This document shows, piece after piece, positions 3,932 through 50,057 of a stretch of 64,000 bases of DNA (positions are counted from its first letter, which is position 1; each line of letters begins with the position of its first letter). A program made the translations under genes and the position numbers. The stretch covers positions 35,307 to 99,306 of the IMG/VR virus record IMGVR_UViG_2541046997_000001; one strand, 5' to 3'. The notes under the pieces were generated by a model. The model was given only the letters and a program-made list of their open reading frames with translations, did not search any database and was not told the DNA's origin. This DNA comes from a virus (taxonomy: Duplodnaviria > Heunggongvirae > Uroviricota > Caudoviricetes).

Positions 3932-4410
3932 TATACCTTCTTGAATTTAAAATCTGATGTTTCAAATGTTAATTGTCTTCCATAATATTTATTATTTGGA
4001 AAATAATAATTAACCGATTTTAAAGTTAATTCTCCTATTCCATATTTATTAGGTTCTTGCAGTTGACGTTCAACCATATCTGCCAAAATATCGGCTCTGG
4101 TTCCTAGATATCCGTCTTTATGATATTCCATACAATCTTTATGACAATATGCATATACAGTTACATACATAGTCTTCATTGTACGAGATTGATTTGAAAA
4201 ATTGACTTCTACACATAAATACGGAAGCACCTTTATTTGAGTATCGTCAATATATAAATATGGGAAAATTTGAGAATAAACCAAGTTGTCCACATCATCA
4301 GAAGTGTAATTTTCTCCTAATAATAACTCACATATATCAGGAGAATCTAAGAAGGATAAAAGAAGATTCGTTTTAAAAACACCAATATCTTTTAAAATTG
4401 TTTTACTCAT
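3931..4410 (-). CDS. Putative tail terminator/completion protein
   Basis: 159 aa, located between neck and tail tube genes. Confidence 0.5.
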   Translation of the reverse strand: MSKTILKDIGVFKTNLLLSFLDSPDICELLLGENYTSDDVDNLVYSQIFPYLYIDDTQIKVLPYLCVEVNFSNQSRTMKTMYVTVYAYCHKDCMEYHKDGYLGTRADILADMVERQLQEPNKYGIGELTLKSVNYYFPNNKYYGRQLTFETSDFKFKKV

Positions 4411-4422
4411 AAATCCCCCTTG

Positions 4423-5463
4423 CTAAAATAGATTACATATTTCTATTTTCTTTTCTATGATAATCACATTGTTTATAACTATCTGTAATGTTATGTCTTT
4501 CCCAACAGAATTTGAATCAATTACTTTAATATCAATAGTTGATCCAGAAATAGAAGTATCTAATTTTGTATCTGATTCTATTTTCCAGTTAAATTCTGTA
4601 TATTCGAATTCATTCGTTTTATTTTTATCTCTATAGAATTTAACTTGGTATGATTTTTTTCTATTTAATTTAATGGAATCGCTTCCTATTATATTTGCGA
4701 AAATAATAAATTCTGGTTTATCTGTTTGTTCAGGCAAAACCTGACTATCTACATCTATATAATCACAAATTCTCAATTCTCTATTATCCGTTTGCAGATT
4801 CAATTCAGTTTTATCTGCAATGAAGCTTAAAATACTTCCATGATATTCATCGCCATAATCATATAAAACATCATCGCTTCTAGTTAATTTAAAAACTTTG
4901 TCCGGATTTATCTTTTTTCTATCAATAAATACACGTTTACGATCAAGATTCAAACATTCTTCATCTCCTGGAAGCTTTATAGTGTATGTATTAGAAGATA
5001 AGGCAATTGTAAAATTACCATTTTCTCCGACATCATATTTTGATGCAGAAACTGCATTACACCAACGTTCAATTATCTCACCAGAAGAGTTTTGCCATCT
5101 TAATAAATATTGGCATAGTACCATTGTTGCTTTTTCGTAAATTCCGTTATTACCGGGATACCCGTCTATAAGCCAGTATCGATTTTCAAAAAAGATATAC
5201 ATGCCAGCCTTAACAGTTCCGATTTGAAATAAAACTGTCCTTTCAAGAGATTTCAATTGTGTATTTGCAGTGTTGCCCTGAATAATACATCTAATTTGTT
5301 TTGAAATGCTTAAATCACTGTTATAAAGAATAACAGAAGTGGCAATGTCGGTTTCTAATGCTTCTGCAAATGCGTCATCTTTATTTTCTAAAAAAGCATC
5401 ATTTTCATATCCACCTGTTACGTTTGGACGAGTGTCTTGATTTAATAAATACCAATCTTGCAT
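4423..5463 (-). CDS. Putative head-tail connector/stopper with C-terminal Ig-like domain
   Basis: 346 aa; YIFFENRYWLI...CQYLLRWQNSSG pattern; beta-rich C-terminus. Confidence 0.5.
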   Translation of the reverse strand: MQDWYLLNQDTRPNVTGGYENDAFLENKDDAFAEALETDIATSVILYNSDLSISKQIRCIIQGNTANTQLKSLERTVLFQIGTVKAGMYIFFENRYWLIDGYPGNNGIYEKATMVLCQYLLRWQNSSGEIIERWCNAVSASKYDVGENGNFTIALSSNTYTIKLPGDEECLNLDRKRVFIDRKKINPDKVFKLTRSDDVLYDYGDEYHGSILSFIADKTELNLQTDNRELRICDYIDVDSQVLPEQTDKPEFIIFANIIGSDSIKLNRKKSYQVKFYRDKNKTNEFEYTEFNWKIESDTKLDTSISGSTIDIKVIDSNSVGKDITLQIVINNVIIIEKKIEICNLF

Positions 5464-8216: not shown

Positions 8217-9431
8217 TTAAAAAATATTTACTTCTTCATCGTCATCGACATATTTCTCGCTACATACTTCTGAGAAAATATCTTCGATTTTTACTTCTTC
8301 TGAATTCTGCTCAGAAATACGAGCTTCAGATTCTGCCTGTTTCTGTTTTGCAACAATATTCATGCAGATTTTAGATTTGATAGAATTGATTTCAGATGTG
8401 ACATTATTTAATTCTTCTTTTTTCTGACATGCGTTGATATTCTTTTTCAGTTCTTCAATGTCTTCTTTTGCAACTTCTTTTTCTTCGGCATTAAACTCTT
8501 TAAGAGAATTATCTAATTCAGCAAGCTTTTCAGCCACTTTAGCCTTTGCAATTTCTCTTTCTAAAAGTTCTCTTTCAGCCCAATATGTATCTCTATCGGA
8601 TTCCATTTGTTTTAATGTTGCCTGAAGCTGCTCAACAGACGCATTAAGTTCTGAAATTGTATTGTCTTTTGTTTCAATCTGCGAATTCAGATCTGCAATC
8701 TTATTGTTCAATTCAGAAACCTCATCATCATGTGTTTTCTTTTCACTATTAATTTCAGAAAGAGCAGATCTAAGAACTGTTTCAAATTCTTTCTTATCGA
8801 ATTCCATGTTTTTATTTTCCTCCTTAAGTTTTTCTTGTTTTTGTGCTACTTCAAGAATGTAACAATTTTCGTCAGCTTCCTTGACACCCAATATCGCTGT
8901 TGCCGAAAAATCAAACACTTGTGGATATCGAATTTCTTCGTTGTATCCACCGTCATAAATAATGTTTCCTCCATTCTTGCCTACAATTTCGATAGAAGAC
9001 TTAACATCGGACAATAAAATATTTTCTTTAATGTAATCACAGAAATTTTTATATCTTTGATAAAAAAGATATCCGTATCCAACAAGAACTCTTTTCATTT
9101 CTCCGTTAATTTCTAAATCTTCAATCTTAGCGTCTTCAATAACTCCGCAACATTCAGAGTTATTAAATAATGGTTCAGATTTTCCATCTCCAATTTCTAC
9201 AGTTTCTGTATATCCATGGTCTAAAGGAACATCTTTTAATTCTGAATCAACAAAACTTGCACAAATTGGTATTCCTTTTATTGAATCTAAATTGTTTAAA
9301 ACATATTCCTCATTCCAACTAATTCCATTTAGATTTTTTTCGTCTTTTTTATGTAATGTAAGCAGCACCATTCTGATTTTTCGCCTACCACCTTTTGATG
9401 ATTTGCTACTTAATTCGAGGATTCTATTCAT
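8217..9431 (-). CDS. Prohead protease with C-terminal coiled-coil scaffold
   Basis: N-terminal ..PLDHG..GYLFYQRY..SSIEI domain plus long acidic coiled coil. Confidence 0.75.
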   Translation of the reverse strand: MNRILELSSKSSKGGRRKIRMVLLTLHKKDEKNLNGISWNEEYVLNNLDSIKGIPICASFVDSELKDVPLDHGYTETVEIGDGKSEPLFNNSECCGVIEDAKIEDLEINGEMKRVLVGYGYLFYQRYKNFCDYIKENILLSDVKSSIEIVGKNGGNIIYDGGYNEEIRYPQVFDFSATAILGVKEADENCYILEVAQKQEKLKEENKNMEFDKKEFETVLRSALSEINSEKKTHDDEVSELNNKIADLNSQIETKDNTISELNASVEQLQATLKQMESDRDTYWAERELLEREIAKAKVAEKLAELDNSLKEFNAEEKEVAKEDIEELKKNINACQKKEELNNVTSEINSIKSKICMNIVAKQKQAESEARISEQNSEEVKIEDIFSEVCSEKYVDDDEEVNIF

Positions 9432-24800: not shown

Positions 24801-24964
24801 AATGTGAGAAACTGGCAGCAATACCGCAAGATTTACGGTATCACTACCAGTTAAGAAAGGAGCGTATGAAGAATTCATACAAAAATGAAAATAAGTATTT
24901 ACCTATGGACATAGATGGAACTTCTCCCTACATTAACATACCGTCATAATATTCTGTCACTATT

Positions 24965-25560
24965 TACAAAAGGCTGGGCACAAAGGAGCTACCTTTATAC
25001 CTCTTTTGCATCTGATAAACAGCAATTATAGATGTGAGTGGTTACACATAACTTTCACCCAGGTCATTCAGCAATATATGAGAGCAGATATTAAACCATT
25101 GTTCTATTAATATAATTTTCCAATCCTTTTTAATTCGTCAATTTGGGCTACTCGCACCTCTAACAGATCTTATACAAAAATTTCTTTTTTTCAACGACGC
25201 AACTGACTTGTTTGGATTTTCCTTACTTATTTCCTATAAGATTCCACCCTTATAGGCATCAGGATTATTACTCCACCGGAGTCGTCTATTATGCCAGTGA
25301 TCTGACGAGTACATTTTACGGCAATATGTTTTTGCAAATATGTTTGATTTTGACGGTTTCCGTCTTTCTGTTTATACCTCGCAGTATTCCAGAAGATACA
25401 ATATGAAACTATCGCATCATATCACATCTCATCGTACACATATTCTCAGCATGGTGACTAACCAATCTGCACTGAGTTACCTATATCCATAAGCAAATAC
25501 TTATTCGGGCAAAAGCCCAAGCCCCATATTAGGGGCTATATTTTTATAGATATATCTCCG
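24965..25560 (-). ncRNA. Candidate large structured ncRNA (ROOL/GOLLD-class context); boundaries approximate
   Basis: ORF-free on the minus strand, dense hairpins with G-U pairs on the minus strand, upstream of tRNA-Trp. Confidence 0.6.
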
Positions 25561-34847: not shown

Positions 34848-36377
34848 ATGGAGAGTGATTGTTTGAGTAACAAATCATATATATCGATAGATTTAAAAAG
34901 TTTCTATGCATCAGTGGAGTGTATAGAACGAGGGCTAGATCCGCTAACAACGAATTTAGTTGTTGCGGACAATAGTCGTACAGAAAAGACCATTTGCTTG
35001 GCAGTAACTCCTTCCTTAAAATCATATGGCATTTCAGGCAGACCAAGATTATTTGAGGTTGTTCAACAAGTAGATAAGATAAATGCAAGTAGATTCTATC
35101 AATTAAAAAATAAGGAGTTTACTGGAAATTCTTACGATAAAAAAGATTTAGATAAAAATTTGAATCTAAAAGTTGATTATATAGTTGCTCCTCCGCGAAT
35201 GGCTTTTTACATGAAATACAGTGCAGAAATTTATAATATTTATCTGAAATATGTTTCACCAGAAGATATCCATGTATATTCTATTGATGAAGTATTTATA
35301 GATGCAACTTCTTATTTAAATGTATACGGATTGTCTGCAAAAGAATTAACACAGAAGATGATTTTAGATGTACTGAATACTACTGGCATTACCGCAACCG
35401 CCGGAATCGGAACAAATTTGTATTTGGCAAAAGTTGCTATGGACATTGTTGCAAAGCATATTCCGGCAGATGAACACGGAGTCAGAATTGCTGAATTGGA
35501 TGAGATGTCTTACCGTAAGCAACTTTGGAATCATAAACCTCTCATAGATTTTTGGCGAGTGGGAAAAGGATACGTAAAACAATTAGAGTCCGTTGGTTTA
35601 TATACGATGGGAGATATTGCAAGATGTTCACTGGGTACTGAAAATGATTTTTACAATGAAGACTTGCTGCGAAAAATGTTTGGTAAAAATGCGGAATTAT
35701 TAATCGACCATGCATGGGGATATGAACCATGTGCTATTGCAGATATTAAGAAATATAAGCCTGAGAGCAATAGTATTGGGAGTGGACAGGTGCTTCAAAA
35801 TGGAACAGATTATAAAACTACAAAATTAATTGTCCGTGAAATGACAGAGAACTTAGTTTTGGATCTAGTAAGTAAAAATCTTGTTACAGATCAGATTGTG
35901 TTAACAATAGGATATGATAGAGAAAATTTATTGGATTCCGCAAGGATGAGTGCATATCAAGGTGAGTTTTCTGTCGATCAATATGGTAGAAAGATACCTA
36001 AACATGCACATGGAACGATTAATTTGGGTGAGCACACATCTTCTACGAGTATGATTGTAAAAGACGTTTTAGATCTGTTTGAAAGAATCATAAACAAGAA
36101 CTTATTAGTAAGAAGGCTTAATATGTCGGCTAATCATGTAATAAATAAAAATTCTGCCATGAAGAATACTTATGAGCAGTTAAATTTATTTGATTTGATG
36201 AACAAGCAAGAGTGTAAAGAAGAGAAGGAGCTTCAAGAAAAAGAGGAAAATATTCAAAAGGCTGTTTTAAATATTAAAAATAAATTTGGAAAGAATGCGA
36301 TTCTCAAAGGGATGAGTCTACAAGAAGGTGCGACTATGAGAGATAGAAATAATCAGATAGGTGGACATAAGGCATAG
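34848..36377 (+). CDS. Y-family DNA polymerase (UmuC/DinB/UvrX-like)
   Basis: SIDLKSFYASVEC, YSIDEVFID, TAGIGTNLYLAKVAMD, FWRVGKG; start may be the TTG at 34863. Confidence 0.95.
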   Translation: MESDCLSNKSYISIDLKSFYASVECIERGLDPLTTNLVVADNSRTEKTICLAVTPSLKSYGISGRPRLFEVVQQVDKINASRFYQLKNKEFTGNSYDKKDLDKNLNLKVDYIVAPPRMAFYMKYSAEIYNIYLKYVSPEDIHVYSIDEVFIDATSYLNVYGLSAKELTQKMILDVLNTTGITATAGIGTNLYLAKVAMDIVAKHIPADEHGVRIAELDEMSYRKQLWNHKPLIDFWRVGKGYVKQLESVGLYTMGDIARCSLGTENDFYNEDLLRKMFGKNAELLIDHAWGYEPCAIADIKKYKPESNSIGSGQVLQNGTDYKTTKLIVREMTENLVLDLVSKNLVTDQIVLTIGYDRENLLDSARMSAYQGEFSVDQYGRKIPKHAHGTINLGEHTSSTSMIVKDVLDLFERIINKNLLVRRLNMSANHVINKNSAMKNTYEQLNLFDLMNKQECKEEKELQEKEENIQKAVLNIKNKFGKNAILKGMSLQEGATMRDRNNQIGGHKA

Positions 36378-36390
36378 AGGAGGGATAGTT

Positions 36391-36819
36391 TTGAGTGGGA
36401 AATATGATGATATTATAAAACTTCCACGTTTTGTTTCTAAGAAGTATCCGCAAATGAGTATGCATGACAGAGCTGCACAATTTTCACCATTTGCTGCACT
36501 GACAGGATACGATGATTTAGTTAAGGAAACTGCCCGAATTACTGATCAGAAAGTTGAATTAGACGAGTATATTTTGGATAATTTGAATGAAAGGTTATGC
36601 ATTCTGAAGAAGAATTTGAGTGAGAGAGTAGAAGTTAAGATTACTTATTTCCAGGAAGATTTAAAGAAGTCTGGAGGAAGGTATTTAGAAAAGCAAGGTA
36701 TTATTAAGAAAATAGATGAGTTTAAAGGTTATGTTATATTTGAAGATGGTGCAATTATTCCGATAGGTAATATTTGTGAAATTGAGTGTGGCTTATTCCA
36801 AGAAGAAATGTTTTCGTAG
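36391..36819 (+). CDS. yolD: YolD-like protein
   Basis: YDDIIKLP...QMSMHDRAAQFSPFAALTGY; adjacent to the Y-family polymerase. Confidence 0.85.
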   Translation: MSGKYDDIIKLPRFVSKKYPQMSMHDRAAQFSPFAALTGYDDLVKETARITDQKVELDEYILDNLNERLCILKKNLSERVEVKITYFQEDLKKSGGRYLEKQGIIKKIDEFKGYVIFEDGAIIPIGNICEIECGLFQEEMFS

Positions 36820-37353
36820 GTAGATATGAAATTTATTTTTAAGAAATTAAGTATGAATTTTTAAAGATCAGTCTCAGGATTGGTCTTTTTTTGATGCGAA
36901 ATTTTATGTAAAAAGTTCAGGTGGGTCGATAGGATAGATTATAGAGTACGGTGTTTCTCGAATGTTTTGGTAAAAAAATTTGAGTATTGAAAAACGGACT
37001 TCGGTGGAGAGGAATATTCGTGAGTCAAAATATGTTGTATGTAAGGATAATTTTTGAGATTCTAAGATGTGAATTTTGTGAGTGAGAGGGTGGTAGAATT
37101 CTGTAATTTATGGTGTCTTCGATAAAAAGTTGTATTTATGGGATATTATGGAAGAAATACGGGTAAAATTAATGATTTTGGTATAGATGGGGTGTGAAAA
37201 GTGCGATAAATAAAGAGGCTGTCGAAGTCATTATCGAACTAAAAATGGTTGATTTGAGATCGAAAATCTGGTCATGGCGTGTGGATGGAACCCATTCCCA
37301 GTATTTGGCAGCACTAATATATTGCATAAATGTAAAATACCCCCGGTCTGAAT

Positions 37354-37383
37354 AATAGTGTAATAGTATAGTATTACACTATT
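37354..37383. repeat. Perfect 12-bp inverted repeat with 6-bp spacer (dif-like)
   Basis: AATAGTGTAATA-gtatag-TATTACACTATT. Confidence 0.9.
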
Positions 37384-38090
37384 TTGAGGACTTTTTGCGT
37401 ATCCTTAAAATGGCGAAAATTATTGATATAGGACTTTTAGGAGTGGGGCGGGGGGAGTAAAACAGGGGTTGCGATTTGCATGCAAACTAGTGCGGAATAT
37501 TGGCTATTTTGGGGTTCGGTTTTCTGTAGGGACTTAAATTTTTACAAAAAATAAATAAAAAACAATATATCTAAAATCAGATCATAATAATATAAGCAAA
37601 AAATAAAAGGAGTTCTCAGATACTCCTTTTGTATTAAAAACGACCATACATAATAACGCATATTATTATAAGTAGTTTAAAAAAATATATATAAAATTAT
37701 TTATATTAGATCTTTCTGCTCTGCTCTCCTTCTTGCGCCATTTCCGCCAGTAAATCCCACCGCATCCAATATTAGTAATCATTCCTATTTTCAAAAAATC
37801 CGCACTGGTAGCCAAACAAATTATACAGATCACAATCTAATATAATCATATTAAAGCCTACAACTCACACTGCCTATCATTAATCAGTTATCACTATCTA
37901 ATATACTTGCATAGCTATGCATATGCTATAACGATACTACAATATATATCTAATATATATATCATACTTGTATAGTTGTGCATATACAGCTTATAAAAGG
38001 CAACTGATACTATCTATATAATAGTAGTAATGCGTTGCCGTCTAAAGAGTCATAACGAAAAAGTGTATTTACATACTTTCTAATAAAATT

Positions 38091-38294
38091 CTAATAATGC
38101 TCTCTATATTTTGGGCAGTCCGATGAGCCTGAACAAATACAATTTAATCTGCAACTTTTTAATTTATTATTATAATATATACAACGTCTTTTATCTCGTC
38201 TATTAGTTTTGCGTTGGCCTGTTTCTATAATATGCCAGCCTTCTCCATTAAGCAATGCATGTACTCTATTTACATCCTTATGTCTCCTACTCAT
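38091..38294 (-). CDS. Small Cys-rich protein
   Basis: RRDKRRCIYYNNKLKSCRLNCICSGSSDCPKY; ATG overlaps the upstream stop. Confidence 0.6.
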   Translation of the reverse strand: MSRRHKDVNRVHALLNGEGWHIIETGQRKTNRRDKRRCIYYNNKLKSCRLNCICSGSSDCPKYREHY

Positions 38295-38730
38295 CACTTG
38301 TATCCTTTTCTTTGTATTTCTCACATTTTGATGATCCGATACACTTATATAAATAATGTCTGCATTTTTTACTTTCTTTGTCATAATAAAAACATCGTGC
38401 TTTGTGTCTGCGAGGTTCATTACTTTTCATATATCCAACGTGGCAAGGTGTTCCTATATTTCTACTTACTGCTATATATTCATTAGTGCGTTCATGTGTA
38501 CCGGCTTGCACAGGTAGGGGCACAAATACATCATTTTCTTTTTCAGTTTTCTTATTTTTGTAATATTTACAGCTATCAGATTTACAAAAAGTATTATATG
38601 CCAAGCTCATGCTATTATTACACGTTTGTCTTTCTTTGTTGTAATATATACAATCTTTCCCGAGTCTTCCTTGTTTTTTATGTTTATATGATTTTGATTT
38701 GCTATTTTTAATATGCAAAACATTAACCAT
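38287..38730 (-). CDS. Cys-rich protein with two copies of the same module
   Basis: KDCIYYNKERQTC...CKSDSCKYY and RRHKARCFYYDKESKKC...CIGSSKCEKY. Confidence 0.65.
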   Translation of the reverse strand: MVNVLHIKNSKSKSYKHKKQGRLGKDCIYYNKERQTCNNSMSLAYNTFCKSDSCKYYKNKKTEKENDVFVPLPVQAGTHERTNEYIAVSRNIGTPCHVGYMKSNEPRRHKARCFYYDKESKKCRHYLYKCIGSSKCEKYKEKDTSDE

Positions 38731-38731
38731 T

Positions 38732-38929
38732 TTAAGCACCTTTTTCATCAAGATCTTTTTTTATAAGTTCTTTTATATATCCCTGATATGACAGATTATT
38801 GTCATCGCAATATTTTGTAATTCGTTCATATTCAGATAACTGATTGTTAGTAAATTTTAGTTGTATATATTTGCTATTAGCATTATATTTTTTTATCGCT
38901 TTTAAAGTAGCTTCGCTCGTCTTTGCCAT
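38732..38929 (-). CDS. Ribbon-helix-helix/Arc-like DNA-binding protein
   Basis: KYIQLKF...YERITKYC...SYQGYIKELIKKDL. Confidence 0.65.
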   Translation of the reverse strand: MAKTSEATLKAIKKYNANSKYIQLKFTNNQLSEYERITKYCDDNNLSYQGYIKELIKKDLDEKGA

Positions 38930-39018
38930 ATTGCTATATCTCCTTTTATAAAGTCCTTTATATTATCATTTTATCTTTAATATGTCAATAATTCAATATA
39001 GCATAGTATATAATAAAC

Positions 39019-39118
39019 AATAAGCACCACCTATAATATATTTGTTATTATGCATATGTTATAAAACTTAAAAATATAAGCAACACCTATTGACTATAAG
39101 CAACACCTATATTATAAT
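39019..39118 (+). promoter_or_regulatory. SigA-type promoter overlapped by direct-repeat operators
   Basis: TTGACT(39090)-17-TATAAT(39113); TATAAGCAACACCTAT at 39075 and 39095, variant at 39019. Confidence 0.8.
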
Positions 39119-39169
39119 ACAACTATCAACAAGAGACACATAACAAACATACATAATAAAACTTGTTGA

Positions 39170-39830
39170 TACAGCACATTGATAATTTTTAGATACTACT
39201 AGCAAGTAAAGCGTATAGTAAAAAGCAATAGGGTAAATCTATCAACGCCACTCATGTAAGCGGAAAGCCGTATCATTTTACGATTGATAGTTCTGAAAAA
39301 AATCATTCATTAATGATTATTGTAGAATAGGGTAAACTTGATCTTGTTAGCAAGTCGTGAGTGTTAGCCACACTGAAAAACGGTTAGGGTAGTTACATAC
39401 CTTCTGAAAAGCCAGAAAAGCAACAGCGGATTATTAAACGCTTAAAATCCTATATTGGAAAGAAATGGATAAAATAATAAAGCAGTATCCGAATATATTG
39501 GGCGATACTGGCTAAACAATAAAAAACTAATATAACTTAATTCCGAAGGGAATTACAAATGTCGGAGGAGTCTGACTATAAAGAATCATCTAACGGGGAA
39601 CCGGTTGTGAACAGGTTTCAGAGGATAAAGAAAGAGTATATCCAGTGATCCTCTGCACGATATATTCAAAGAAAAAATACATTTTTTATTTTGACTATGC
39701 GAGGCATAGAGGACAAGCAAAGAAAGATCTATTTCGGGCAAAAGCGTAAGACTTGTAACAGTGAGTAGTAGAAATAACTTTACTTTTAATGTCTTCACAC
39801 ATGGCTTGCATAGATGAAAATAAAACAGCG
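39170..39830 (+). ncRNA. Candidate large structured RNA or leader; boundaries approximate
   Basis: No plus-strand ORF of 60 aa or more; more than 8 hairpins; repeated TAGGGTA...CTGAAAA module. Confidence 0.6.
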
Positions 39831-39861
39831 AATAATCAAATAAGCAAAGGAGATTAAGACA

Positions 39862-40044
39862 ATGGTAAACAAATATTATTTTTCCGAAGATAACCGGGAA
39901 TCACTTCCGGAAGTAATGGATAAAACATTTACAGAGGATCAGATAAAAGAAGTTTATCGTGATATTGTAGATAAAACAGAATACCATGACTTCAAGGAAT
40001 GGTTTTTTGATATGATAAAAAGTGGATTGATCTTGCACGGATAA
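39862..40044 (+). CDS. Hypothetical protein
   Basis: ORF track; RBS AAGGAG. Confidence 0.7.
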   Translation: MVNKYYFSEDNRESLPEVMDKTFTEDQIKEVYRDIVDKTEYHDFKEWFFDMIKSGLILHG

Positions 40045-40146
40045 AATGAGAAAATAATATGTACTAGATATATTCCAACACTGTAAGAAAAACTTGCGAT
40101 GTATTGAAAAATACTTTATAATAAGTAAAGGAAAGAGGGTGATCTT

Positions 40147-40650
40147 GTGAGTAACGCAATTATAACAGATATGTCAGGTGCATATATTGAGCACTCGGAA
40201 ATTATCACAAATTTTGTTGCTACTGTATACAGTCAGTTAAAAGGAAATATCTGCCGTGTATATCCGGACAATGTTCAATATAAATGGACTATAGGGGACG
40301 AGGAAAAAATTGTTATTCCTGATGCCTCTATAAATTGTCGTGTACATGCTAAAAAGGGGAATTCGTTTTTCGATATTCCACGTTTTGTCATGGAGGTTCT
40401 TTCTCCGTCTACGGAAAAATATGACCGTACGGAAAAGATGGAATTATACAGACAACAGGAAATTGATGAATACTGGATTGTAGACTGGAGAAAAAGACAA
40501 GTAGAAATCTATACACTTGACTATGACAGCGAAGGAAATCCAGAATATTACTTACTTAATACAGTGACGGAAGAGAACAAGAGCGAATTATATATTGTAC
40601 ATTTTCCGCATGTTAAGATCACTTTTGACGAATTATTTAATATAGACTAG
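40147..40650 (+). CDS. Uma2-family (DUF820-like) endonuclease
   Basis: IPDASI...PRFVMEVLSPSTEKYDRTEKMELY...IDEYWIVD. Confidence 0.9.
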   Translation: MSNAIITDMSGAYIEHSEIITNFVATVYSQLKGNICRVYPDNVQYKWTIGDEEKIVIPDASINCRVHAKKGNSFFDIPRFVMEVLSPSTEKYDRTEKMELYRQQEIDEYWIVDWRKRQVEIYTLDYDSEGNPEYYLLNTVTEENKSELYIVHFPHVKITFDELFNID

Positions 40651-40663
40651 GAGGTGTAGGAAA

Positions 40664-40876
40664 ATAATAACACTAGACGAGCAGATCAGATCAGCAATGT
40701 TGCATGCTGGTATTAATATAACAGAGCTTGCGGACAGATTCGGTATATCTCAACCGAATATGACACAACGATTAAAAAGAGGAAAATTCACAAAAGAAGA
40801 GCTTCAAAAGATAGCTAATATATTAGGATGTGAATATATTTCAGAATTTAGATTTTCAGATGGTCATAAGTATTAG
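40664..40876 (+). CDS. XRE-family HTH regulator; probable ATA start (missed by ORF track)
   Basis: Manual translation ITLDEQIRSAMLHAGINITELADRFGISQPNMTQRLKRGKFTKEELQKIANILGCEY; RBS GGAGGTG 7 nt before ATA. Confidence 0.8.
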   Translation: MITLDEQIRSAMLHAGINITELADRFGISQPNMTQRLKRGKFTKEELQKIANILGCEYISEFRFSDGHKY

Positions 40877-40917
40877 GCATTATGTTAAAAGCATAGTGTC
40901 TTTTTTTTATAATTAAA

Positions 40918-41002
40918 CATAATGAAATAATTATGAAAATAATATAAAAGTATTGACATAACGAAAAAATTATGATACATTAAGCGTAACGAAAAACTTA
41001 TA
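40918..41002 (+). promoter_or_regulatory. SigA-type promoter with three palindromic operators
   Basis: TTGACA(40953)-17-TACATT; CATAA-N8-TTATG at 40918 and 40957, variant at 40985. Confidence 0.75.
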
Positions 41003-41166
41003 TAAAATAGTTTTAAGTTATGAGTACCTTGAAAATTTTACATTGTAAATCAAATACAGCGCACTTATACGAGCAGATAACACTGTTTAAGTACAGAACT
41101 TTTATAAGCGGAAAATCAGCAAGTGAATTAAGGGAATAAACCGTAAACAGGCTGTGCTGTATGATG

Positions 41167-41218
41167 TTCTAGTCTATCGGTAAAAGTCCGATACTGACGA
41201 GCAAGAGCGAAACTAGAA
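41167..41218 (+). ncRNA. Type III hammerhead ribozyme
   Basis: TTCTAG-TC-TATCGG(taaaagt)CCGATA-CTGACGA-GC(aaga)GC-GAAA-CTAGAA; predicted cleavage after C41174 (GUC). Confidence 0.85.
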
Positions 41219-41259
41219 GAGAATAACAAAGCAGATATATAAAAGAAAGGTTAAAAACT

Positions 41260-41529
41260 ATGAATGAAAAATACTTAAAACATACAGTGGAAAATCTGAT
41301 TGAATTTGTAAATGATTTAACATTTATTGACACAACAAAAAATAACTATGTTCAAGCTATTAACGCACTTAAAACGGCAGAATCATTGATTGATTTTTAT
41401 AAAAATGAATTATATGAATTAGAAGGAGAAATTGCTGATTTAAAAGTAAAAGTTGGAAAAATGTTATTTGATGAAATGGTTAATGACTGTAGAGAAACAG
41501 TTGAAGATTTAACAGGACTTGTATTTTAA
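41260..41529 (+). CDS. Hypothetical protein
   Basis: ORF track; RBS AAAGG. Confidence 0.7.
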   Translation: MNEKYLKHTVENLIEFVNDLTFIDTTKNNYVQAINALKTAESLIDFYKNELYELEGEIADLKVKVGKMLFDEMVNDCRETVEDLTGLVF

Positions 41530-41553
41530 GAAAGGTTAAAAAAGGTGGAAATT

Positions 41554-42102
41554 ATGAAGAGAAGCAAATTATACGGAACAACATTTTGTGGAAATGAAGC
41601 AAGCGACTACGCAAAAGAGCAAGGGTATCTTGACTATGCAACATTTGCAAAAGCATTTGATGCCGTGCTGAATAATAGTATTATGGAAAATACTTGTGAG
41701 GTCGGATTTTGGGAGCAAGAAAATGGAATTATTGATAATTCTGAAGAAATCAATGAACTTAATGAAAAAGAAGAAGAATTATCAGTGGCTCTTTCAAATA
41801 TGGTAGACGAAGGAAAAGACGATTCTAAAGAATATCAAGAAATAGAAAAAGAGCGCAATGAAATTGTAACACAAATTGAAAATCTTGAAGAAGAGCAGGA
41901 ACAGTCATATAATCAAGATATTTTTCAATATTTTATTGTATCTGACCAGGGAGTGGAAATGATTAAACAGTATACAGATGATCCACTGTTTTATAACGAA
42001 ACTCTCGATATGTACGTTTGGGGAATCACACACTTTGGAACAAGTTGGAACTATGTTTTAACAGATGTTAAGTTAAATTGTGGGCAAGAAGCATTTGAAT
42101 AA
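41554..42102 (+). CDS. Acidic hypothetical early protein
   Basis: DIFQYFIVSD...MYVWGITHFGTSWNYVLT core with a Glu-rich coiled-coil insert. Confidence 0.7.
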   Translation: MKRSKLYGTTFCGNEASDYAKEQGYLDYATFAKAFDAVLNNSIMENTCEVGFWEQENGIIDNSEEINELNEKEEELSVALSNMVDEGKDDSKEYQEIEKERNEIVTQIENLEEEQEQSYNQDIFQYFIVSDQGVEMIKQYTDDPLFYNETLDMYVWGITHFGTSWNYVLTDVKLNCGQEAFE

Positions 42103-49097: not shown

Positions 49098-49233
49098 GAA
49101 TATGGAATAGCTATATGATAGTTTTAATAGAAGAAAGTCGCATTTCAACAGATAAGAAAATAAAATGATCTAAAAGCATTCAGAGAACATATCTTTGGGT
49201 GCTATTTTAATGTGAAAAAGGAGGTGTGATGAT

Positions 49234-49619: not shown

Positions 49620-49802
49620 ATGGCAAGAAAAACTTTTGCAACTCCTGTTGAGGAATCAATTCAGAATGATTTTAAAATTGAATGTAAAAATCAGGGATAT
49701 AAGCAAAATGAAGTAATAGAGGCTTTAATGTCTGGTTTTGTAAATGGAGAAATCAAAATAGAAAAGAAGATAAGTTTTAAAATTGTTCAACGGGATAAGT
49801 AA
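49620..49802 (+). CDS. RHH-like small DNA-binding protein with its own SigA promoter
   Basis: ARKTFATPVEESIQNDFKIECK..G..QNEVIEALM; TTGACA-16-TATAAT upstream. Confidence 0.7.
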   Translation: MARKTFATPVEESIQNDFKIECKNQGYKQNEVIEALMSGFVNGEIKIEKKISFKIVQRDK

Positions 49803-50057
49803 AAAAGAATAGCGGCTCCAACGTCTACCAAACAATGAAAACCGCTACTCAGCACCGCCAAACATAGTGTTTGACTAATTTCTATTATACCAATTCTTTA
49901 GATTTAGTCAATCAAAAATTTCCTTATGTAAAGCACATTGAAAACTGAATAGCCTTTACAGAATAGGTACGGTGAAACGATGCTAGGACAAGCTGACTCA
50001 CGCTAAAAGCTGTTTTGTGTAGAGGTGTGTGAAATTAAAGAAAGGAAATGATTATTT

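Follow-up and report, generated by a model that had tools for sequence, protein, structure and literature searches.

Sequence comparison resolves a gene-free early leader of a gut prophage into exchangeable RNA cassettes behind an rRNA-type boxA

Between the first early promoter of a 164-kb provirus (31.9% G+C) and its first early gene lie some 660 bases that carry no evident gene, and the question raised by this locus is what so long an empty stretch is for. The window analysed here is a 64,000-nucleotide part of that provirus. An original prediction, made from the letters of the sequence, described the stretch as one structured RNA with an internal module repeated three times and a possible pairing of its two ends, and offered two interpretations: an unknown large non-coding RNA, or a cis-acting antitermination or processing leader for the long early gene array. 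Its non-coding character was borne out. Across 39120-39861 there is no ORF longer than 70 codons, and the longest plus-strand ORF lying wholly inside the interval has 34 codons. Small ORFs in the interval were rejected for want of a good ribosome-binding site (RBS), and a minus-strand frame of 70 codons, which overlaps the last of the cassettes described below (cassette C), was rejected because the relatives' copies of C vary in length at that place by 5 nt and 80 nt.

The position of the region directly behind an early promoter was also confirmed (Table 1). The divergent 65-aa gene upstream probably encodes an Arc/ribbon-helix-helix-type repressor of this promoter, as its nearest named clusters suggest, and three direct repeats, one of them inside the promoter, would act as its operators. 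Other small regulators occupy the position of this gene in relatives. Downstream, the 60-aa gene at 39862 opens a long array of small plus-strand genes, which in relatives includes ArdA. Its homologues are annotated in Mediterraneibacter (Ruminococcus) gnavus, which is for that reason the probable host; the related phages, too, probably infect M. gnavus. Intrinsic-terminator-like sites lie downstream at 40875-40901 and 49175-49203, and the downstream early operons have their own promoters and boxA elements. A Uma2 nuclease-family gene (40147-40650, plus strand) lies in the first early operon. Upstream of the locus are a UmuC-family polymerase gene and a YolD-like gene, the latter a weak match (34848-36819, plus strand); SPbeta has a comparable pair.

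Table 1. Features of the first early leader and its surroundings (window coordinates)
Feature	Position	Strand	Basis or remark
Divergent 65-aa gene	38732..38929	-	ORF; nearest named atlas clusters Arc/RHH_1/TacA1 at 0.91-0.92, lead only
Three 20-nt direct repeats (family D2), operator-like	39015-34, 39071-90, 39091-110	.	repeat search; one inside promoter
Sigma-A-type promoter, first early operon	39090..39118	+	near-consensus, 11/12 consensus matches
5′-terminal 10-bp hairpin	39124..39171	+	z -5.5; pair probability 0.78-0.99
rRNA-operon-type boxA, 5′ joint of cassette A	39174..39185	+	match to Lachnospiraceae rRNA boxA
Cassette A, ~370-nt non-coding, three alternating 7-mer pairs	39186..39557	+	present solely in close relatives; z -1.05
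Cassette B, 126-nt non-coding, stable hairpin at 39561-39576	39558..39683	+	one sequence variant; z -1.65
Cassette C, ~143-nt irregular long hairpin	39684..39826	+	z -4.7; covariation; absent from Rfam
A-rich linker and RBS (39846-52)	39827..39861	+	3′ joint common to all last-slot elements
First early gene, 60 aa, no known family	39862..40044	+	anchor for collecting relatives
Type III hammerhead ribozyme, last slot of second boxA leader	41169..41219	+	sole descriptor match in genome (type I and III)

Searches against known families returned little. Rfam, searched with its gathering threshold and by E-value, matched no family to the region, with nothing in 36500-42000 at E ≤ 10; across the whole window at E ≤ 5 it gave only a full-length ROOL RNA (24898-25500, minus strand, adjoining tRNA-Trp) and two tRNAs, all on the strand opposite to the early genes. 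This silence is weak evidence, because Rfam also missed the hammerhead ribozyme of the second leader and a twister ribozyme in a relative (L027), both described below. No useful match came from BLAST searches of phages and plasmids. A DNA search of 401 Lachnospiraceae genomes returned only short matches at chance level, and pattern and model searches of those of them that were covered found none. The comparison made here is based on related loci (L-numbers) collected from viral, metagenome and assembly collections by way of flanking-gene anchors, many of the records being redundant copies of the same phages. One assembly, GCA_000411335.1, matches 39000-39900 with 100% identity.

Among these relatives the leader falls into three cassettes, A, B and C, each inherited independently of the others. 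Similarity to the window breaks repeatedly at boxA (39174), near 39557, near 39683, at 39708/39794 and near 39826. Cassette A is followed by B and a long form of C, by B and a short form of C, by a series D-D2-E, or by D-F and the short C, while C itself is found after at least six other cassettes. Unrelated cassettes stand in for B after A in L001, L003 and L169. In L163, where the promoter and regulator are different, A still begins at boxA, and an unrelated promoter/attenuator cassette replaces the 5′ hairpin. Signature mapping yielded more than 15 distinct complete leader layouts, a count that excludes truncated or cross-matching rows. The cassettes appear to have been exchanged by recombination at short shared joints, namely boxA, ~39548-57, the U-rich start of C and the A-rich linker. 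Neither a RecT nor a Rad52-type recombinase that could account for this shuffling was found in the phage, nor were further copies of A, B or C elsewhere in its genome. Many relatives carry, among their non-coding cassettes, a tiny ORF with a strong RBS (L005 ~1090-1203, 37 codons; L218 ~8807-8960).

On this comparative evidence, the 660 gene-free bases are three swappable RNA cassettes behind a boxA, and not one giant RNA. The length of the leader, its overall folding score and the ROOL gene elsewhere in the phage would suit a single large ornate RNA closed by a helix between its 5′ and 3′ ends, and like ROOL and GOLLD (Rfam RF03087; PMC5737381) the leader is long, prophage-borne and non-coding. 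Unlike them, however, it matches no model, is not one inherited unit, and continues into mRNA, with no terminator at its 3′ end. The free reassortment of the cassettes and an expected pairing between A and C of only 0.2 pairs in the whole-leader ensemble both lead us to reject the single-RNA reading, which we regard as scarcely credible. The pairing of the two ends could not be upheld either: the closing pair 39200:39805 has a predicted probability of 0.000, and the two ends are inherited separately.

What, then, remains of the predicted structure? The region as a whole does fold better than its shuffles (z -3.1), but this signal comes mainly from cassette C and the 5′ hairpin (z values by part in Table 1). 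All of the stems originally quoted are present in the sequence at their places, but several are minor in the predicted ensemble, those at 39239, 39336, 39360 and 39619 having pair probabilities of 0.08-0.18. A local hairpin proposed at 39695-39709 has a probability of 0.00, because its 5′ arm pairs instead with 39805-39813 (0.98-0.99), a long-range helix that covariation also backs. Homologue comparison gave covariation for C and none for the closely similar copies of A.

At the head of the leader, the boxA 12-mer at 39174 is a close match to motifs of Lachnospiraceae rRNA operons, which lie 125-281 nt upstream of 16S and also in the 16S-23S spacer. Exactly three boxA matches occur in the phage genome, all on the plus strand and all after early promoters, against none in a reversed control, and boxA is placed likewise in relatives. 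NusB is encoded in 4/4 Lachnospiraceae genomes searched and was not found in the phage; no NusG-family paralogue was found in the phage. Since the biology of the rRNA boxA is established, we consider it quite likely, by analogy, that the element at 39174 binds Nus factors. A third early leader (49800-50050) has a hairpin region overlapped by a promoter in antisense direction (49911-49884, minus strand), then a boxA (49933) and a long stem. Attenuator-like cassettes resembling this third leader precede leader 1 in relatives and give weak ctRNA matches.

Cassette C is, as judged from its covariation, a real structured RNA. Across 17 long variants, 99.3% of the cells of its 44 pairs are paired and 12 pairs are compensated, compared with 43-53% of cells and 1-4 compensated pairs in slid controls. 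The 4x4 internal loop (39716-19 / 39786-89) is near-invariant and the apical stretches 39732-42 and 39764-74 are conserved. A pattern built on these conserved loops led to two additional, distant phages. Their upstream cassettes are entirely different, yet C again stands directly before the first RBS, ahead of a different gene. With these two added, 17 of the 44 pairs are compensated, although these are not 17 independent events because the changes cluster in three divergent sequences (L026, L218 and L219). The basal helix comprises 22 pairs, all of them paired in 100% of cells, and is as long as a stalk of about two helical turns. It is retained in the short form of C, which lacks the apex (39709-39793), occurs as 9 distinct sequences and looks like the product of a hairpin-apex deletion. 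Since the short form keeps the basal stem, that stem would be the part needed in cis. A simple RNase III site would not need unpaired nucleotides as conserved as those of C, a point against reading C as such a site. C is new to Rfam 15, and we found no paper describing it, two large candidate-RNA catalogues being covered partly at most; the first 200 of 408 supplementary files of the Fremin and Bhatt candidate RNAs contain no match.

The role of C is suggested by what else is found in its place. In relatives, other elements stand ahead of the same A-rich linker and RBS: a hairpin cassette (E), a twister ribozyme or, in L007, a plain hairpin that is almost perfectly paired. The same gene stands downstream of C in L026 and of a twister in L027, and homologous genes follow C in L005, hairpin E in L087 and a twister in L096. 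A twister descriptor gave 13 distinct matches with complementary pseudoknot triplets, nearly all just 5′ of an RBS-like sequence, and no match in a 3.3 Mb reversed control; Rfam weakly supports two of the 13 and missed those checked in L027 and L096. In the phage itself, the last slot of the second boxA leader holds a hammerhead ribozyme, with the second early operon's RBS following it. More than 100 locus records have this ribozyme, which Rfam misses even at E ≤ 10. In L010 and L087 a twister replaces it. The second of the two original interpretations, a cis-acting leader, thus stands in outline, with an rrn-type boxA at the head of the region and, at its end, the slot that holds twisters in relatives.

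Two of these slot-mates were recorded in their own right. Twister-P1 variants before RBS-like sequences lie at L027:4590-4645, L096:2587-2640, L165:3629 and 4249, and L029:452, 1950, 4587 and 6563, so that L029 has four. Cassette E (L087 ~2575-2635; L001 ~4890-4950) is a last-slot element with a stalk and a three-way junction, has 6/23 pairs compensated and is not in Rfam.

The reading we prefer, with moderate confidence, takes the region for an untranslated 5′ leader that belongs to the first early operon and is built of exchangeable RNA cassettes, with C setting the 5′ end of the mRNA. The region is likely transcribed. A host sigma-A promoter, visible in the sequence and presumed active, would start the transcript under control of the small divergent repressor. 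The rrn-type boxA would then recruit host Nus factors and guard the long untranslated RNA from premature termination. Cassettes A and B, in place of which over a dozen unrelated cassettes can stand, would follow, and would most likely be released as separate small RNAs. Finally, the long irregular hairpin of C, directly before the first RBS, would set the 5′ end of the mRNA and separate it from the upstream RNA. Because the same slot holds a twister or a hairpin in relatives, and a hammerhead in leader 2, defining this end is the most likely task of C, and it is one that C probably has. The likeliest way would be for host RNase III to cleave the basal stem, with the remaining hairpin protecting the new end. 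A 22-pair basal helix, together with an RNase III in the host family (encoded in the four Lachnospiraceae genomes searched, and not found in the phage), makes this the simplest mechanism; from stem length and slot, RNase III is a serious if tentative candidate for the cutting agent. C may instead be a purely protective hairpin, stabilising the message while staying uncut. If it is cut, A-B would come free as an RNA of ~550 nt.

Could C instead cut itself? Its exact exchange with twisters before the same genes would fit an unrecognised self-cleaving ribozyme, as would its conserved apical nucleotides and its near-invariant internal loop, the 3′ strand of which carries UAA, as does L1 of twister. 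Yet the slot is also filled by a plain hairpin and, in 9 distinct sequences, by a C that has lost its apex, and C has no twister-type pseudoknot-forming loop and fails the hammerhead and twister descriptors and all Rfam ribozyme models. We therefore regard a ribozyme in C as very unlikely, and a bolder version, in which C and its slot-mate E form an undescribed self-cleaving class that cuts the early transcript and frees upstream swappable decoy RNAs, as a long shot. Known classes were also tried as candidates and rejected: the type-P1 twister descriptor finds no match in this genome, permuted types being checked by eye only, and the sole hammerhead match of the genome, at 41169, lies outside A-C.

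Cassettes A and B present a different picture. The threefold module of A, TAGGGTA followed by CTGAAAA, was correctly noticed and is not random: the two 7-mers follow each other in turn three times over (39229/39293, 39328/39373 and 39385/39404). Of 3000 dinucleotide shuffles of the region, 3 contained a triple alternation of this sort when every pair of 7-mers was allowed, and the entire 164-kb genome has only one other such triple. A predicted helix (39209-21:39431-43) encloses the three pairs. The module is not, however, a conserved structural core, because its motifs are extra variable, its folding is no better than expected by chance and its copies are predicted to pair differently. Within the motifs 8/42 positions vary, compared with 14/303 elsewhere in A (Fisher p 0.002, with sites that are not independent and some changes that are homopolymer slips); each of the three 5′ motifs varies in some relative, and the three copies differ in predicted pairing context. 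The copies of A, known from close relatives only, are 96-99% identical, and 11 variants show 0 compensatory changes, 7 one-sided changes and 7 broken pairs, being too alike for covariation. Its 3′ third has 1 variable site in 115. Pattern scans for distant relatives of the module returned only two close relatives and chance-like matches; at the two Lachnospiraceae loci that were inspected, the collection-wide matches proved to be chance resemblances within coding sequence. Homology between A and other first-slot cassettes was not significant. One such cassette, K (L014 ~1733-2060; L027 ~4315-4580), is unrelated to A and carries a similar pair of short repeated motifs. K also has a covarying hairpin that resembles, by eye, the D-arm/anticodon stretch of the phage tRNA-Trp (24730-24800).

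Three further accounts of A and B need to be weighed. They may be swappable RNAs that act in trans, as decoys or antitoxins, and are the first to be made when the prophage is induced or a cell infected; the repeats of A would then be multivalent binding sites, either for an RNase of host defence or for some other RNA-binding protein. Our explanation of C is compatible with this account, whose appeal lies in the first-transcribed position, ahead of genes that in relatives include the anti-restriction protein ArdA, in the high turnover of the cassettes, and in non-random repeats with the raised polymorphism that an arms race could yield. Because the unrelated cassette K carries similar repeated motifs, a protein-binding role for A is possible. 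The absence of sequence homology between A and K tells against the decoy account, as do the lack of an Rfam match, repeat units that are unequal (~70, 52 and 26 nt) and not near-identical, and the share of homopolymer slippage in the motif variation. Nor did the 401 Lachnospiraceae genomes or plasmids show either cassette next to a toxin gene. A type III antitoxin or pseudo-antitoxin array in A was rejected specifically, as only two 7-mers repeat, at unequal spacing, whereas such arrays are tandem near-identical 34-57-nt pseudoknot repeats. On the whole we consider the decoy account somewhat unlikely.

It is also unlikely that A and B are near-neutral leftovers, decaying cassettes or an old tandem duplication, with only boxA and C of consequence. 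The weak folding score of A, its 7 broken and 0 compensated predicted pairs, its polymorphic repeats and the failure to find distant homologues would all be expected of leftovers; on the other side stand the near-constant 3′ third of A and the invariance of B, in sequences that are very close, and the covariation of other cassettes of the array such as E. Finally, A follows directly on the promoter and boxA, there are terminator-like sites further down the array, and the phage lacks a NusG-family paralogue, as would suit an RNA of the put or conAn2 kind, which would act in cis as an antiterminator by modifying the RNA polymerase that transcribes the long early operon. But most relatives lack A and have unrelated cassettes instead, promoters and boxA elements of their own serve the operons further down, and A combines a weak folding score with no covariation among copies too alike to show it. 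We consider an antiterminator quite unlikely.

The preferred reading, a cassette-built leader ended by C, has parallels in several known systems. RNase III sites punctuate phage early transcripts, as in T7 (R0.3-R1.3) and Bacillus phage SPO1, and RNase III acts on rRNA processing stalks. Like the phage sites, C lies immediately 5′ of an early gene and forms a long, imperfect stem interrupted by an internal loop, and boxA and stalk together recall the rRNA leader; unlike RNase III stalks, C has conserved apical nucleotides and swaps with ribozymes. Antitermination systems of the boxA/Nus type include the rrn boxA, lambda nut, HK022 put and pLS20 conAn. The likeness is that the phage boxA closely matches the rRNA boxA of the host family and follows an early promoter; the differences are that no NusG-like phage protein was found and that relatives do not conserve the RNA beyond boxA. 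Phage decoy RNAs are exemplified by pseudo-ToxI repeats and by the solitary repeats of Racr RNAs. A resembles them in having short repeats in an early, non-coding and variable phage region, and differs in its unequal units, its lack of an Rfam match and the failure to find a cognate toxin locus.

A further likeness is to the clustered hammerhead and twister ribozymes of prophages (Perreault et al. 2011, PMC3088659; reviewed in PMC6765202), which process prophage transcripts, also beside ardA, and for which cleavage in vitro was reported for a Clostridium scindens example (PMC3088659). The locus is of a like kind: small genes in the early part of a prophage, ardA among them in relatives, and an element for cleavage immediately before the RBS. 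In contrast to that report, C is not a known ribozyme, and where the published ribozymes lie between genes, here a boxA-led chain of non-coding cassettes lies ahead of the first gene. The architecture is thus a variant of known ribozyme- or RNase III-punctuated early transcripts combined with boxA leaders. Why self-cleaving ribozymes occur near phage genes is a question that has yet to be settled (PMC6765202). The relatives offer natural swaps ahead of the same gene, between twister, hammerhead, plain hairpin, C and E, and therefore make this question testable, with C and E nominated as short, well-bounded candidates for cleavage. More generally, a long early leader that looks ‘empty’ in these gut prophages is a series of small cassettes, and counting it as a single giant RNA would be a mistake. 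Should A or B turn out to be decoys that are set free, the leader would parallel, in RNA form, the variable anti-defence gene arrays that lie downstream.

The early region of relatives holds other RNAs as well. A skipping-rope RNA occurs there on either strand (L096:4085-4165, plus; L063:644-724, minus), and in other relatives a PBECR2/3 nuclease-like gene stands in a comparable position.
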